From contig OX597821.1 of the NCBI GenBank assembly GCA_951406725.2, positions 76,880,001 to 76,944,000 on the forward strand: a stretch of DNA of 64,000 nt, written 5' to 3'. How positions within the stretch are numbered: the first letter of the stretch is position 1; each line of letters opens with the position of its first letter. The notes beneath the pieces were generated by a model. It did no database searches. It was not told the origin of the DNA and saw only the letters and a list, made by a program, of their open reading frames with translations. The stretch is from Octopus vulgaris. Taxonomy: Eukaryota. Position numbers and translations under genes: made by a program. Below are positions 4,264 through 43,849 of this stretch, in pieces.

Positions 4264-4457
4264 GAAACCAAATGACCGGCCTTATGAGTCCTAAGAGTCA
4301 AGAAACCAGGTGACCGGCCTTATGAGTCCTAAGACTCAAGAAACCAAATGACCGGCCTTATTAGTCCTAGGATTCAAGAAACCCGGTGACCGGCCTTATG
4401 AGTCCGACAACTCAAAAAACTAGATAACCGGCCTTATGAGCCCTAAGAGTCAAGAAA
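4264..4457 (+). repeat. 38-bp minisatellite, about 5 units
   Basis: Unit gaaaccaaatgaccggccttatgagtcctaagagtcaa; a single inverted unit lies at about 17973-18013. Confidence 0.9.
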
Positions 4458-5560: not shown

Positions 5561-5628
<68 letters not shown>

Positions 5629-5629
<1 letters not shown>

Positions 5630-5790
5630 GCAGGAGTGGCTGTGTGGTAAGTAGCTTGCTAACCAACCACATGGTTCCGGGTTCAGTCCCACTGCGTGGC
5701 ATCTTGGGCAAGTGTCTTCTGCTATAGCCCCGGGCCGACTAATGCCTTGTGAGTGGATTTGGTTGACGAAAATGAAAGAAGCCAGTCGTA

Positions 5791-5871
<81 letters not shown>

Positions 5872-6075
5872 GTGTGTGCCTGTGTTTGTCCTCCTAGCAT
5901 TGCTTGACAACCGATGCTGGTGTGTTTACGTCCCCGTCACTTAGCGGTTCGGCAAAAGAGACCGATAGAATAAGTACTGGGCTTACAAAGAATAAGTCCC
6001 GGGGTCGATTTGTTCGACTAAAGGCGGTGCTCCAACATGACCGCAGTCAAATGACTGAAACAAGTAAAAGAGAGT
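5629..6075 (+). mobile_element. CORE-like SINE (family B), full length, internal (TA)n(TG)n
   Basis: tRNA-like head (tggctgtgtgg, ggttcagtccc), CORE-like ggcatcttgggcaagtgtctt, internal microsatellite, 3' end gactgaaacaagtaaaagag. Confidence 0.9.
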
Positions 6076-7560: not shown

Positions 7561-8205
7561 CGGAAATTCACATATACACAAACACGTGTAAACGTTTATA
7601 TTTACAAACAAAGAAAACAGCACTCAATACACGGTGTAGTATTTGTTTAACAATGTATAAATCCCTGGTTCCCAATATGTTTGCGCGCTCGTGCGCTTAC
7701 GTCCGCGTCTGTACGGGTATGTGTGTTTGCGTGCGTGCGAGTGTATACTTTAATGGGCATTATGTAGACATATATGTGTGTTTATATAAGTGTAACTAAC
7801 AAATATCGCCGAGTTTCCAATGAGCCGATCTCGAACGATGGTGGGCGGTCTTTTCCTCTGTTTGAGGTGACTAAATGACTGAAGTAGCTTCACTGGCGAC
7901 TGCACGACTCCATCGACACTGACCCAACAAAACAACAAAACAAAGATTAATGAACCCCTTATTGTTGATTTATCCTCGGGAAGGAGGAGCAACTGGACAA
8001 CGCTTCTTTGTTCAAAATGAAAGCAAAATAAAAGAAAAAATAATGAAGATCATCATTGTGGCTTTCCCGTTTTGTTTCTTTTGCTTTCTATCAATGATTC
8101 TTAACATTTTTTTTCTCCGGTTCCCGCAGCTCTATTGGCTCCATGAACTTATTGCTAACATCCCATGTTCTACTCAAATCGTGGCCCACAGACGCACAGT
8201 CACCG

Positions 8206-8274
<69 letters not shown>

Positions 8275-9199
8275 TCTCTCCCTCTCTCTCTCTCTCCCTC
8301 TCTGTTTGTGTCAAAGTTATTCATGTATTTTCAAACAAATAATGAGCAAAAATTTCAACCTGTTATCTTATAACGGGTTTTACTCCACAGACCAAAAGAG
8401 CTCAAGTGAAAGCAAAAAGTTCTTCGAGTCGCAAAACCGCTAAGTCTAAGCTAACAATTTTCTATATCAGGTCGCACCATTTGCGGAGGAGGGCTTGCAA
8501 AGGGCTTATTCCTTTCCTTCTAAACCATTTCAAATTTTCTTTTAATTGTTTCCTGAATCTAAGACGGCAAGCTGGCCGAATGATTAACATGCCGGACAAA
8601 ATGCTTAACGGCACTTCAAATGTTCGGACTTCAAATTCCGCCCAGGGCAACTTCATTTCATCGGTGTGTGTGCGTGTGTGCGTGTATGTGTATGTGTGTG
8701 CGTGTGTGTGAGCGTGTATGTGTGTGTGTATCTGTGTGTGTGTTGTTTATTTTCGTATACCCACCCAGTATTTTTTGTCAGCTCGAGCCCTTGTTCTACA
8801 CAAATCTTGCGGGTGCCGCCGATATACAAAATTCCCAGTCTTATCGTTAAAGGCACGAAACTGGGTATTAGTATTTTTGGTCGATAACTGAGGAAGGATT
8901 AGGGTCCTTCTGTGTCTGTCCTACGCGTACATTTTGTAGTATTTAATGCATTTTTTTCAAGAAAAGGCTCTTTTTCTTTAACAATCCTTTCATATACAAA
9001 CACGCGCGCGCTCTCTCACTTTCTCCCCTTTCCTCACCCTCTTGTACTATCCTATATCTCTCCCCACTCCTCCACACTCAATAATACTATAAAAAGAGAC
9101 AAAATTCCTGCAAAAGTTCAATTAATATTCACTAAATACATGAAGTATCATTGTTGGGCCCAAGGCCCATTGAAGAGCCCTCCACAGGAGCTAGTTGAA

Positions 9200-9585
9200 A
9201 AGCCGCCCGATAGAGCGGCCCAATTCAAGATCACAACATATAGGTACACTGTGACACAATTTCTTTTCCTCAACAGGCGCTGCCCTGTTTAATATTGTTC
9301 CAAAACTGATCAAAGAGGAAAAGTATCCCATCACCTTTAAATGAAGTCTAGACAAATTTCTTCAAGGAAGACCAGATAACCCACCTGTAAGTGGGTTATC
9401 TGGTATTCCTTGAATACAACTCACTGGATACAACTCACTTAACAAGAACTCACCACTTGAATGGACCATGATACCACAAAACTTGACTTAAAAGGGATTT
9501 AGATAATCCTATCAGGTTGTGCTATTAAGTTAGACATGGCCTGGACCAATCTTTGGTCGAAACATATCTAAGTTTATCAAAGTTT
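9200..9585 (+). mobile_element. CR1/L2-group LINE 3' end fragment
   Basis: Degenerate frame *HNFFSSTGAALFNIVPKLIKEEKYPITFK*SLDKFL, homologous to 16640-16700, followed by a 3' UTR ending in tandem aagtttat. Confidence 0.65.
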
Positions 9586-9599
9586 ATATTTATATATAT

Positions 9600-9744
9600 A
9601 ACGGGCCTCTTTCAGTTTCCGACAACGTATTCCTCTCAAGCCTTTGGTCGGCGCGAGGTTTCCGTAGAAGACACTTGCTGAAGGTGCCATACAGTGGGAC
9701 TGAACCGAAAACCATGTGGTTGAAGAACGTCATACACAGCCACG
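9600..9744 (-). mobile_element. Family B SINE, 5' half
   Basis: acgggcctctttcagtttcc...gtagaagacacttgc...cagtgggactgaacc. Confidence 0.8.
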
Positions 9745-11024
9745 AAATAAATTACAGTTTTATTTTACAGAAAACATAGGAAAACCTCGAACGGAGAATA
9801 GCTGCAGCAAAAGGTAAGAAGATCTAGTTAAAACCCTTAGAAGACGGTAAAAAATGGCCGAAAAGATGTTATAGGGAATCAAATTTTGTCCCAGATTCGA
9901 ACTCAGCCCCAAAATCCATATTTCAACAAAATCCATATTTCTTCATTCGGCCAACATCTTTTAAAATCACGCAAGAGAATAATTATATATTTGATAGTAA
10001 ATTATGCATCATAGCGTTCACATGATAACCTATATACCAGTGAAATATAATTTCATACACCCATCAGACGATAAAATAAATTACTCAACAGCTAAACATT
10101 GCAAGTATTTTCTTCCCGAAACTGGGTGATTTCCTTTTTAAATTCATGTTTAACGAAGTCCACTTAGGGAGTGGAATGTTGACAGGGTAGATTTTCTTCT
10201 CCGCAGTCAACCAGCGGCAACCAGCCAACTAGCCTGCCAACCAGCCAGCCAGCCAGCCAGCCGGCCAACTAACCAACCAGTCAGTCGAGATTTTCCGTTG
10301 ATTAAAACCGATCAAAGAAAAACAATTAGTTCGCATCGTTAAAACTGATACGTCGCAATAGTGCTTTTCAAGTATCTTGTACTTTTGACAGTGAACAACG
10401 TTTAGTTTATTATAGCTTCCACCACCACCTCCTCTACCATTACCATACGCCTGGGCTTTCTCGCAGCTTGAAGTCGCTGTTTGCGGATCAAGGAGATGGT
10501 TTTCTGATTGTAATTCAATGAGCGATATTTTAAAGAGCATTACGCGTTCATCGCTACTTAACAGACAGAAAGACTATAACCGTTATAACGAAGCAGCGGT
10601 CAATTTAAGCCAGAAACAAGCAAACTTCACAGATGGAGGTTGTTATTCATTAAATTTAACAAGGATTAGATTTACAAAACCGAGATCGGTAACTTTAGAC
10701 CGACACTTAACAAACAGTTTCACATGAAAGACAAATCATCCTACTTTAAAGATAACTAATGTGCTAATAATTAATTACACATGGACTTTTTTTATTGTAT
10801 ATTTTACGATGGTTTCTTTGGGTGAAACATCATCGAGAAATGTTGATCCATCTATCATGACAAACTTAAGATGGTTTCAATTATAATGAAACTTAGGAAA
10901 GACAAAAAAGAAAAGAAAGCAAAAAAGCATAATTAAAAATGAGTTAATTCTTTGAGTATTAATACTTTCAGTCGTATGACTGTGGCCACACTGGAGCACT
11001 TGTAGCAGCCGATCTTCCTTGAAT

Positions 11025-11185
11025 GCGCAGGAGTGGCTGTGTGGTAAGTAGCTTGCTTACCAACCACATGGTTCCGGGTTCATTCCCACTCCGTGGCAAC
11101 TTGGGCAAGTGTCTTCTACTATAGCCTCGGGCCGACCAAAGCCTTGTGAGTGAATTTGGTAGACGGAAACTGAAAGAAGCCCGTC

Positions 11186-11223
<38 letters not shown>

Positions 11224-11438
11224 GTGTGTGTATATGTTTGTCACGACAACATCGCTTGACAAACGATGCTGGTGTGTTTGCGTCCCCGTAACTTAGCGGT
11301 TCGGCAAAAGAGACCGATAGAATAAGTACTAGGCTTACAAAGAATAAGTCCTGGGGTCGATTTGCTCGACTAAAGGCGGTGCCCAGCATGGCCGCAGTCA
11401 AATGACTGAAACAAGTAAAAGAGAAAAGAGAAAAAGAG
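11025..11438 (+). mobile_element. Family B SINE, full length
   Basis: High similarity to 5629-6075; tail of repeated aaaagag. Confidence 0.9.
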
Positions 11439-11642
11439 AATGGTTGACTGGTTCGATATCGTCGTTCGGTATTTACTAAGGGTCCCTTTATATTTTTCAT
11501 TCCTTAAGACATGCAATTGGATAGTTGAGGACCTCTAAATATCAGGCTGGTAGGATCTTTTCTCTTTGGCAACCAATTTTCAATCTCATCAATTCTTGCT
11601 CGAAATGATTTCATATTCTGTGTAATGATATGGTTTTATATG

Positions 11643-12061
11643 CTCTTTTACCCTTTACTCTTTTACTTGTTTCAGTCATTTGACTGTGGCCATGCTGGAG
11701 CACCGCCTCTAGTCGAGCAAATCGACCCCAGGACTTATTCTTTGTAAGCCTAGTTCTTATTCTATCGGTCTCTTTTTGGCCGAACCGCTAGATTACGGGG
11801 ACGTAAACACACCAGCATTGGTTGTCAAGCGATATTGGAGGAGACAAACACAGACACACAAACATATACACACACATACATATACACATACATATATACG
11901 ACGGGCTTCTTTCAGTTTCTGTCTACCAAATTCACTCACAAGGCTTTGGTCGGCCCGAGGTTATAGTAGAAGACACTTGCCCAATGTGCCATGCAGTGGG
12001 ACTGAACCCGGAACCATGTAGTTCGTAAGCAAGCTACTTACCACACAGCCACTCCTACGCC

Positions 12062-12062
<1 letters not shown>
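11643..12062 (-). mobile_element. Family B SINE, full length
   Basis: Reverse complement of the 11025-11438 type. Confidence 0.9.
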
Positions 12063-12124
<62 letters not shown>

Positions 12125-14560: not shown

Positions 14561-14722
14561 AGGCGTAGTAATGGATGTATGGTAAGTAGTTTGCTTACAA
14601 ACCACAAGGTTCTGGGTTCAGTCCCACTGCGTGGCACCTTGGGCAAGTGTCTTCTACTATAGCCTCGGGTGACCAAAGTTTTGTGAGTGAATTTGGTAGA
14701 CGGAAACTGAAAGAAGCCCGTC

Positions 14723-14801
<79 letters not shown>

Positions 14802-15000
14802 TTTGCCACCCCCCAACATCGCTTGATAACCGATGCTGGCGTTTACATTCCCGTAACTTAGCGGTTCGGTAAAAGTGACCGATAAAATAAGTACTAGGCT
14901 TACAAAGAATAAGTCCTGGGGTCGATTTGCTCGACTAAAGGTGGTACTACAGTATGGCCACAGTCAGATGACTGAAACAAGTAGAAGAGAATAAAGAGTA
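14561..15000 (+). mobile_element. Family B SINE, full length
   Basis: Matches 5629-6075 end to end. Confidence 0.9.
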
Positions 15001-15009
15001 AGACCAGCA

Positions 15010-36442: not shown

Positions 36443-36604
36443 CATTATTTACATTATTTACATTTGACGGATATTTGTTCTCATCTTGTTTGTTGTTAAC
36501 ACAATGTTTCGGCTGATATACCCTCCAACCTTCACCAGGTGTCTTGGGGAAATTTCGAACCTGGATTCTCATTCCTAAGGTACTTTTCAATGTTGTTGTT
36601 GTTA

Positions 36605-36694
<90 letters not shown>

Positions 36695-36765
36695 TCACTG
36701 CCTAGAATGGAATTCGGAGTCTTGGGGTTAGTAGCCCGCGCTCTTAACCACTACGCCATATGCCC
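36443..36765 (-). mobile_element. Composite: tRNA-like head + (TAA)n + hammerhead-containing tail
   Basis: Head 36765-36691 (box A tggcgtagtgg, decayed box B); (TAA)n 36690-36590; hammerhead-like fold 36543-36498; terminal 9-bp repeats aatgtaaat. Confidence 0.65.
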
Positions 36766-37080
36766 GGTTTGCGAGGTTTAATAGTTTTAAGAGGATGAGG
36801 AAGAAGAGGAAAATGATGAGGGGGAGGAAACCGATGTTGTCTTAAGCAAAATTAATATCAACAGATGAGTTCGGCGGAACTGACAACTGTTGGACAGAAC
36901 TGGAGTGGTGATCAAAGAAGTGCTAAGAAGAGTAAACGAGGAGAATCATAAAAGAAATGGTGTGACAAGACAGACAAGTAATGGAACGATACTCTCAGCT
37001 GGCAGGATCAGGAAGTGAATCGAAAAGAATATAAGTAGGGCTTGCGGAGACTTTCTTTCAGAAGTGGACAGAAAACGGCT

Positions 37081-37489
37081 CTTTTACTCTTTTACTTGTT
37101 TCAGTCATTTGACTGTGGCCATGCTGGAGCACCGCCTTTAGTCGAGAAAATCGACCCAGGACTTATTCTTTGTAAGCCTAGTACTTATTTTATCGGTCTC
37201 TTTTGCCAAATCGCTAAGTTACGGGGACGTAAACACACCAGCATCGGTTGTCAAGCGATGTTGAGGGGACAAACACAGACACACAAACATATACACACAC
37301 ACATACATATATATAAACATATATACGACGGGCTTCTTTCAGTTTCCGTCTACCAAATCCACTCACAAGGCTTTGGTCGGCCCAAGGCTATAATAGAAGA
37401 CATTTGCCCAAGGTGCCATGCAGTGGGACAGAACCCGGAACCATGTGGTTCGTAAGCAAGCTACTTACCACACACCCACTCCTACGCCT
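37081..37489 (-). mobile_element. Family B SINE, full length
   Basis: Near-identical to 11643-12062. Confidence 0.9.
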
Positions 37490-38552
37490 ATAGGCTGACA
37501 AAAAAGAAAAAAAAACAGCTTCTTACCTACAAAGTCCATCTAGATCGACCCCACAGATCACAAATTTGTAATTTGTAGAGCTGATGACTTGAAAGTGTGA
37601 AGGAGCCATTCTATCCTCGTTTACTGGCCAGCAGAATATTCTGTGTAGACACTTCTTGGATGCCCCAATGCGGTTTGTCTTTCTCTATATTGGTACATTC
37701 GGGAAATCCAGTCGGTACCTGTCAAACAAATGGAAAGGTTTGAGCAAGTTTGCGAGGCTTTTGCAATCCACTCTTTTTATAAGAAAACTCTACACAAGTG
37801 GAAAGAAAATGGTTAAAAGAAGAAGAAAGAAAAAGGGATGAGACTGTATCCATGGATTTCAACAGACTCCTAAGTCTGATAGAATCAATATGAGCGATGT
37901 TTTTCTTGACTTACTACAACAGTGTCGGGGGAGGGGATATAGAGAATTATTAAATGTATTACACCGTGGAGTCAAAGGATTGGGCATAGAGGTTAGCGTA
38001 GATCACGGTTGAATAGAGGAGAATAGAAGAATCTATCAGGCAGGGTTGAGCGGAGGAAGCGCGAGGCCAGTGGATCTACAGAGAGGATAAAGAAAAGTTT
38101 GTGAGGAAACAACGGCTATTTTGGGTCAGAGATTGCTGTGTGTTGGTGAGTGAAGCCATGCTGGATATGAAAATTGTTTTAAAATAGAAATGGATTTATG
38201 CATTTTACTTTGCTACAAAGCTACTGGCATACTTCATTACAAACACTCTGAAGAGTCAGGCCTTTTCCGACTCGCTTCGAAAATTCACATCATTCCTAAA
38301 GACCATTCATGGCACACTACACAGTGTTTCTTCTTTTTCTTTTATGTTTTTGGGTTTTTTTTCCCTCCGAGTCTGAAAGAGGAGCTAATTCCGACCTCGG
38401 CAGAATTTGACCTCAAAACGTAAAATGGATGTAACTAGCTAACATTTTATCCGGAAGTCTACGGATTCTTAAGTCGTAATTAATAAAACGTCTCTTAAAG
38501 GGGAAACGAGATAATAGAAACGGTCTGGAGATGGATAGGTAAATAGATAGAC

Positions 38553-43058: not shown

Positions 43059-43849
43059 CAGGTTGCGGTGAATATATTGTCGTCTAAATTTTAACAAGTA
43101 TATTTACCAAAATTACATAAAAATATCTTGAAAAACTAAGAAGTAAATTTATTCTATAAAATCGCCATTGGCTTGATCCACGGCCTCCAGACGACTTCTG
43201 CAACTCTTCTGGACAGTCTCCTTGTTTAAGTTGGTGAATGCTGCCATAATCCTTGCTTTCATTCCATCTTTGGTGTTACAAGGAGTTTTGTTGGTCTCTC
43301 GCTTAACTGTGCCCCACCCATAATAATCAAGGGGTTTGCAGTCTGGGGAGCTAGGTGGCAAGATGTCTGGAGTGATGTGGTCGCAGAAATTCTCCTGCTT
43401 GTGTGGCATGGTGCAGAGTCTAGTTGCCAGACATAGGTTGTTCCAGCAGCCACCTTCTTGATCAAAGGCACTTGATATAGGCCTTCGTGTTGAGTCTGAG
43501 GCCGCGTGTAAAGATGAACGGAAGCATAACGTCGCCATCGCTTGTGATCAATCCAAACAACATGATGTTGACTGGATATTTGATTATTACCACTCTTGAT
43601 AGATATTTTGGGGACACGACAAGCCAACGGTTGTTCTATGTTCACCATCTGTTCGTATTGGAGCTTCCGGCGCGAATGCCGAGCACTACAGCATGTCATT
43701 TCCAAATTTCTGACTGGGTGAATTGCGTCATGCTGCTGTTTTTCTCACAAACGGTATCCTACTATATTGTGTAGTCGGCGAAATCCAAAACAATGTGCAT
43801 ACGCGAAATTAAAAATTCAAAACAGCGACAATTTACCTATTGCACCCTG
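43059..43849 (-). mobile_element. Tc1/mariner transposon, internally deleted (same family as 23690-24590)
   Basis: WQLDSAPCHTS, PPSSPDCKPLDYYGWG..KTPCNTKDGMKARIMAAFTNLNKETVQKSC; TIRs caggttgcggtgaatatattgtcg / cgacaatttacctattgcaccctg. Confidence 0.9.

Follow-up and report, generated by a model that had tools for sequence, protein, structure and literature searches.

A tRNA-like head and a hammerhead-bearing tail in Octopus vulgaris form the pseudo-LTR of a Penelope/Poseidon-type element

The window analyzed in this work is a 64,000-nt stretch of contig C8 in an Octopus vulgaris genome assembly (2.8 Gb in 227 contigs), and the feature of interest lies on its minus strand at 36443..36765. Read in that orientation, it begins with a tRNA(Arg)-like head (36689..36765) that contains an intact box A (36748..36758, identified from the sequence and from column counts) and a box B that is decayed in this copy (about 36704..36715). 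Next is a (TAA)n/(CAA)n spacer, which varies in length (36590..36688, with the TAA array at 36602-36690), and then a segment at 36443..36572, hereafter the tail, which opens with an ATG at 36572-36570. Within the tail, a minimal type I hammerhead occupies 36498..36543, with a predicted cut between 36503 and 36502, and 9-nt terminal repeats (36443..36464) form a 3′ end of the short class, which is devoid of the 25-30 nt extension carried by long-class arms. An earlier note on this DNA had described the same parts at the same minus-strand places, with stems I and II paired and two substitutions in the hammerhead core. All of these observations hold: both stems are present in the minimum free energy fold of the window copy, and A6G and G16.2A are real.

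In a descriptor search that allowed up to two core mismatches, the window yielded this hammerhead site alone, and 10 block-shuffled windows yielded 0. ARAGORN made no tRNA call on the window or on another copy (L044), and Rfam called neither a tRNA nor a hammerhead on these two sequences. With the two substitutions and a stem III self-duplex of +2.8 kcal/mol, neither the core nor the palindrome is intact in the window copy. It is a solo arm, and no target-site duplications were visible around it, the one copy that was inspected for them. Having both core and box B mutated, the window copy is likely an inert fossil.

Several other sequences were observed in the window. On the minus strand at 36786-36802, about 20 nt upstream of the head, 17 nt resemble the 3′ extension found in other copies of the family (16 matches, one indel); the segment lies within a low-complexity purine tract, and chance, target microhomology, and a leftover tandem tail are all possible. 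Two further abundant families of SINE-like short repeats occur at 62-245, 5565-6072, 11023-11441, 11640-12123, 14563-15003, 37079-37492, and other positions, with no relation to the head/tail element by BLAST. There is also a minisatellite at 4264-4457 (about five copies of a 38-bp unit), and minus-strand frames at 43149-43744 resemble what is presumably a decayed fragment of a Tc1/mariner transposase.

The head and the tail are linked across the genome, as the earlier note had supposed. Among 30 loci selected on the head (window included), a same-strand tail lies 8-334 bp downstream in 26, or in 25 of 29 without the window; one of the remaining loci has a tail at 938 bp and three have none. 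Genome-wide, exact 20-mers gave 865 matches for the sequence that directly precedes the head, 5,148 for the head, and 7,432 for the hammerhead, with 0 matches for a reversed control of the last. After correction for match rate, these counts correspond to approximately 2,100 upstream segments, 15,400 heads, and 28,000 hammerhead/tail arms, the last being estimated from exact matches in 26 of 99 arms that had not been selected on the hammerhead 20-mer. Head-bearing arms outnumber ORF-linked arms by about 7 to 1. This linkage, together with the linkage of ORF, head, and tail described below, rules out that head and tail came together by chance through insertions into a single TAA array.

At the level of the family, the hammerhead core is intact in its commonest letters: 36 of 37 arms have A6, and 26 of 38 have G16.2. 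An intact core in the consensus was one of the checks proposed in the earlier note. The family sequence has the CUGANGA, GAAA, and NUH elements of a minimal type I hammerhead, stems I and II, and a palindromic stem III; its commonest 46-mer is intact, with a stem III self-duplex of -3.5 kcal/mol. Among 130 arms that were not selected on the core, the first core box is kept in 85, the full second box in 47, and both in 32, while the two substitutions of the window copy appear in 3 (A6G) and 14 (G16.2A) arms. A6G was also seen with an identical C-to-T change in stem II in at least two other copies (the L001, L002, and L289 set), one of them ORF-linked, and these copies possibly descend from a minor source lineage whose core was mutated. 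For the head, the best match is tRNA-Arg (score 64 vs. a shuffle maximum of 48) in a comparison that covered 30 tRNA loci of the source genome, with isotypes Arg, Ala, Thr, Cys, Lys, and Glu. Across 142 aligned heads, the commonest letter is the expected one in every column of box A and box B.

The identity of the family emerged from the sequence upstream of the head, which is common to several copies and translates to a GIY-YIG-like C-terminus. Downstream of this ORF end, 26 of 29 further loci selected on it have the head and 27 have the tail; in the 26, the head sits about 30 nt past the stop codon of an ORF that encodes reverse transcriptase (RT) and GIY-YIG domains; the head also follows at 16 of 20 loci selected on the RT. 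One locus (L231) has an open frame of 569 aa with RT motifs and a GIY-YIG-like C-terminus, the motifs of the latter having been read by eye. This protein matches Pfam RVT_1 at E=2.7e-6 and 27.7 bits, below the cut-off of 29.6, has no match to Pfam GIY-YIG, and has 2,744 database relatives at E<=1e-30, the closest of which (P0001-P0005) show 55-68% identity. This RT/GIY-YIG element provides the autonomous Penelope with a matching tail for which the earlier note had proposed a search. At the other end of the element, a same-strand tail precedes the ORF at 14 of 30 loci selected on the N-terminus, i.e., a direct pseudo-LTR (pLTR) in partial tandem, and both element ends were seen at L312 and L314.

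The frame that starts at the ATG ahead of the hammerhead (window 36572) stays open for 200 codons in L318, where it matches the start of an 847-aa protein (P0003) at E=1e-33, and the 43 codons in the window match the N-terminus of the same protein at E=4e-4. Because this frame opens before the hammerhead, runs on, and matches the start of P0003, the tail is the start of the ORF. The tail, hammerhead included, is thus the first ~50 codons of the same Penelope-like element (PLE) ORF (the first 43 in the window copy), as described in the available text on Poseidon_Ac (PAc) of Anolis (PMC11167929). The order of the element is ORF stop, ~30 nt, head, (TAA)n, ATG, hammerhead, and tail, and in full-length copies the tail runs into the ORF. 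These findings identify the head, the (TAA)n spacer, and the hammerhead tail as one repeat family, the pLTR of a Penelope/Poseidon-type PLE, and not as a free-standing chimeric SINE. Our assignment to the Poseidon clade is putative, drawing on architecture and motifs, and this family differs from a 781-aa Neptune-like family in the same genome.

That Neptune-like family, found by a Pfam GIY-YIG search, was considered as the partner and rejected, as it has a different hammerhead variant and the tail was found in 0 of 30 and 0 of 20 loci. It is represented by an apparently young PLE (L121-L124), in which many 781-aa frames are intact and overlap an upstream frame of up to 342 aa; a hammerhead variant of the U3-A8 type is located about 900-1,100 nt past the stop. 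Another abundant short repeat (L337-L366, e.g., L128:5600-5830; 3,795 first-look candidates) has an intact minimal hammerhead, is T-rich, has no tRNA head, and is flanked by (TA)n microsatellites; it is likely the pLTR of another PLE. For a second hammerhead family used as a control, neither of the two proteins tried matched an ORF. Beyond the source genome, a metagenome scan returned only distant relatives (34-42%) on short contigs, with no tRNA-like head recognizable by eye. Contigs of X19 (organism E) cover 28 of 30 family bins, and the family is therefore present under another species label.

For the anatomy of insertions, we used the first 97 of the 100 matches listed for the hammerhead 20-mer, all located in the first 36 Mb of contig C1; four duplicate loci were dropped, leaving 86 loci and 151 arms. 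Among these listed matches, 56 of the 86 loci are divergent inverted pairs, three are convergent, and four are tandem. The 3′ ends fall into two fixed classes 25-30 nt apart, and in 50 of the 56 divergent pairs the extension is on one arm only. Inverted pairs and one-end extensions have been described for PLEs, in which solo and inverted pLTR fragments are normal (available text of PMC8557442), and two internal priming sites have been offered as the explanation (available text of PMC11167929); the extension of ~25-30 nt found here is slightly under the 30-40 bp in print. The octopus family thus has the RT and GIY-YIG ORF linkage, the direct pLTR before the ORF, the inverted 5′-truncated partner, and the one-end 3′ extension of a PLE. 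The earlier note had proposed a SINE mobilized by a Penelope-type RT. The Penelope part of that proposal is supported by the inverted pairs, the one-sided extension, and the matching RT/GIY-YIG element, whereas the part that called for a separate SINE with a borrowed tail has to be given up: the head belongs to the autonomous pLTR, the tail is the ORF N-terminus, and copies that start at the head form no diagnostic subfamily. At two loci (L290:1821-2078 and L294:2047-2295, element strand), an ORF N-terminus is followed 70-285 nt on by a head-start arm in direct orientation, for which template jumps or nested insertions are possible.

The 5′ ends of the 151 arms (among the matches listed) are distributed over the tail (46), the spacer (34), the inside of the head (23), the head start (36, of which 35 are unique), and the region upstream (12 by script, ~15 by eye). 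The stop rate per nt is 0.09 at -8..+5 relative to the head start, 0.009 inside the head, and 0.001-0.002 upstream. Of the 48 arms that reach +5 among the matches listed, 36 end within -8..+5; the script under-chained about three ORF-reaching arms, so the fraction that stops at the head start is nearer 70% than 75%. Among the 30 loci selected on the ORF N-terminus, only L286 begins at the head itself, and L299 and L302 reach upstream of it. An RNase P cut at +1 is a less likely source of these ends, because an acceptor stem is missing and a leader of 3-7 upstream nt remains on 12 of 35 head-start arms. The unusual feature of this element is that a tRNA(Arg)-like box A/B module resides inside the pLTR of the autonomous element itself.

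One alternative is that the copies are ordinary PLE solo pLTRs and that the tRNA-like piece is a passenger, namely an old SINE or a tRNA pseudogene inserted in the 3′ UTR, with the 5′-end peak arising from a Pol II start, from RT stalling, or from cDNA joining at a 12-nt palindrome across head +1. This would agree with the usual occurrence of solo and inverted pLTR fragments in PLEs (PMC8557442, available text) and with the LINE-like internal promoter on record for Penelope of D. virilis (PMC2377424, available text), which also counts against a Pol III start set by the head. The palindrome accounts for 10-11 of the 35-36 head-start junctions, and RNA-seq (below) revealed no RNA ends. However, 25 head-start arms still end at head +1 though they are joined elsewhere than at the local palindrome, the peak coincides with the start expected for a box A/B promoter by its usual geometry, and shared T4 runs are absent, unlike the situation in control PLE ORFs. 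On balance, we regard a passenger origin of the head as rather unlikely.

Animal Pol III starts just before tRNA +1 and stops at runs of four or more T (T4). The density of T4 runs in natural copies of the octopus family is 0.35 per kb (103 pieces, 104 kb), and no single run is common to more than 15% of the copies. The sense strand of commonest letters has 0 T4 runs in 2,481 nt, whereas synonymous shuffles predict 2.8 runs (P=0.022) and base shuffles 4.1 (P=0.012), which is a modest depletion; in single copies, the depletion is not significant (3 observed vs. 3.2 expected in L231, and 1 vs. 2.7 in L232). Three other PLE ORFs of the source genome, analyzed as controls, have 8, 9, and 8 T4 runs, seven distant relatives have 39 in 8.9 kb (lowest in L330, with 1.3 per kb), and control PLEs mostly have 3-8 per kb. 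Both head and tail are free of T4; in the window, 674 nt separate head +1 from the first T4 downstream of it. Three RNA-seq runs from one 2026 study (organism B, ~6% of each run) yielded 7,800-11,100 family reads, whose depth is the same for the two strands; on the reference copy L312, which is without part of the 3′ tail, the reads pile up at neither starts nor ends. The equal depth fits passive read-through and is uninformative on a Pol III start or on cleavage.

Taken together, we consider it probable that the repeat is the solo pLTR of a Penelope/Poseidon-type element in which the tRNA-derived head likely sets the start of a Pol III RNA, so that the own enzyme of the element would stamp out SINE-like copies. 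Pol III initiation at the head, taken by itself, is a step that we favor with some reserve. The RNA would begin a few nt before the head in the 5′ pLTR and read into the ORF, the RT/GIY-YIG protein would nick both target strands, and, by analogy with PAc, priming would occur internally at two sites, ~125 and ~155 nt from the ORF start. Each cDNA would extend back to the RNA 5′ end or end sooner, and the two would then join head to head; by the same analogy, we hold internal two-site priming with head-to-head joining to be very likely. Priming in the 5′ pLTR would generate a short head-to-tail copy, and priming in the 3′ pLTR would generate longer, ORF-bearing copies. A more far-reaching version, in which a tRNA head was captured in the pLTR, the whole 2.5-kb PLE was purged of T4, and Pol III reads it end to end, appears unlikely. 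If true, one uncapped RNA would be the template for both full-length and SINE-like copies, amounting to a LINE-and-SINE pair in one element, and it could perhaps serve as a message too, e.g., via hammerhead cleavage and circularization that rejoin the ORF start. Pol III transcription of the whole ORF would also be an exception to the Pol II dependence that is the rule for autonomous retrotransposons.

The numbers of short copies raise another possibility, i.e., a true PLE-dependent SINE whose solo head-plus-tail copies are transcribed by Pol III and re-mobilized in trans, the PLE having obtained its head by capture or through shared origin. The excess of head-bearing over ORF-linked arms and the lack of T4 in head and tail are in line with this possibility, as is the state of box B, whose pattern is kept by 29 of 38 head-start arms and by 20 of 44 ORF-linked arms, a difference that is partly an alignment effect. 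Nevertheless, no diagnostic substitution was found between these two groups, with low P values stemming from alignment gaps, and no solo-specific subfamily was seen in this small sample (38 vs. 44 arms). Divergence is alike (0.054 in head-start and 0.063 in ORF-linked arms), and a G/A polymorphism at +64 occurs in both. In addition, solo copies end at ~+125 or +155, short of what a PAc-type template needs, which must reach ORF +172, beyond the priming sites (available text of PMC11167929); by this analogy, solo copies would be dead ends. A separate SINE is therefore improbable in our assessment. Although the family has the tRNA-derived head with boxes A and B of a SINE2, it is not distinct from its partner with only the tail in common, as the head is present in the partner without diagnostic differences. 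The element works like a SINE source and fails the SINE test of distinctness from its partner.

Regarding the hammerhead, the earlier note had suggested that the transcript may be processed by self-cleavage. Such processing is not required for the copies, whose 3′ ends cluster 55-85 nt past the predicted cut and which retain 60-90 nt past it, and their templates were thus uncleaved or re-ligated. A retrozyme-like or Schistosoma SM-alpha-like unit, in which hammerhead cleavage of multimeric RNA sets the mobile unit, possibly via circles, could draw on the intact minimal hammerhead and palindromic stem III of the family, on the combination of Pol III promoter and hammerhead known in schistosomes (PMC6765202, available text), and on some 5′ pLTRs that reach past the head, which is compatible with more-than-unit copying. 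Yet the head-to-tail tandems expected of such a unit were found at only 4 of 86 loci among the matches listed, the copy ends are not at the cut site, and PAc insertion in vitro was unaffected by hammerhead mutants (available text of PMC11167929), such that this origin is very improbable. For the favored pLTR of a Penelope/Poseidon-type element, we infer that the hammerhead is active only as a dimer (cf. available text of PMC4209133) and likely dispensable for copying.

In the titles and abstract openings of the literature searched, we found no tRNA-derived promoter in a PLE pLTR and no PLE-partnered tRNA SINE; Repbase, Dfam, or supplements may already list the family as SINE or Penelope. The available part of a recent preprint on retrozymes (bioRxiv 10.64898/2026.07.22.740005) has 0 matches for "tRNA" or "promoter." The octopus family suggests a specific way in which SINE-like repeats may arise with no separate SINE involved, based on a tRNA-type promoter in an autonomous terminal repeat and on internal priming by the RT, which then yields head-plus-tail copies in their thousands. 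Because the copies record an RNA start and two priming sites, the internal-initiation model of PAc and the question of the PLE promoter become testable on ~28,000 natural arms. The family also serves as a warning for repeat annotation, as PLE pLTRs may account for some of the SINEs listed in such genomes.

Among known systems, as portrayed in the available portions of the cited sources, PAc shares with the octopus element a single ORF with RT and C-terminal GIY-YIG domains, pLTRs (PMC11167929; PMC4209133; PMC8557442), a minimal hammerhead in which stem III is palindromic and A9 is followed by an extra base, an ORF start at the hammerhead, two classes of 3′ ends, and inverted 5′-truncated partner arms. 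Unlike that of PAc, the octopus pLTR includes a (TAA)n spacer and a head with boxes A and B of tRNA origin, its 5′ ends peak at the head, and its sense strand is without shared T4 runs. SINE2 elements share the tRNA-derived head with both boxes, a size of ~300 nt, dispersed non-coding copies in the tens of thousands, and RT supplied in trans (PMC5786205). They differ in that the octopus head is also present in the autonomous partner with no separate subfamily found, the "tail" is the ORF start of the partner, the ends are fixed internal priming sites, and most copies are in inverted pairs. TRIMp3 elements (Cassandra, Helenus, and Ajax) likewise have a small-RNA-derived Pol III promoter in a terminal repeat, the source of which was probably a SINE or tRNA insertion; however, these are non-autonomous LTR elements for which long repeat sharing with an autonomous partner was judged unlikely, whereas the octopus repeat belongs to a protein-coding PLE (PMC10886601). 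Finally, SM-alpha and Sj-alpha of Schistosoma and animal non-LTR retrozymes have a promoter followed by a type I hammerhead (PMC6765202), and it has been proposed that retrozymes derive from pLTRs and are moved by PLEs (bioRxiv 10.64898/2026.07.22.740005). In contrast to these head-to-tail tandems released by cleavage, the octopus copies are divergent pairs or solos with ends that are not defined by the cut, and their parent PLE is identified.
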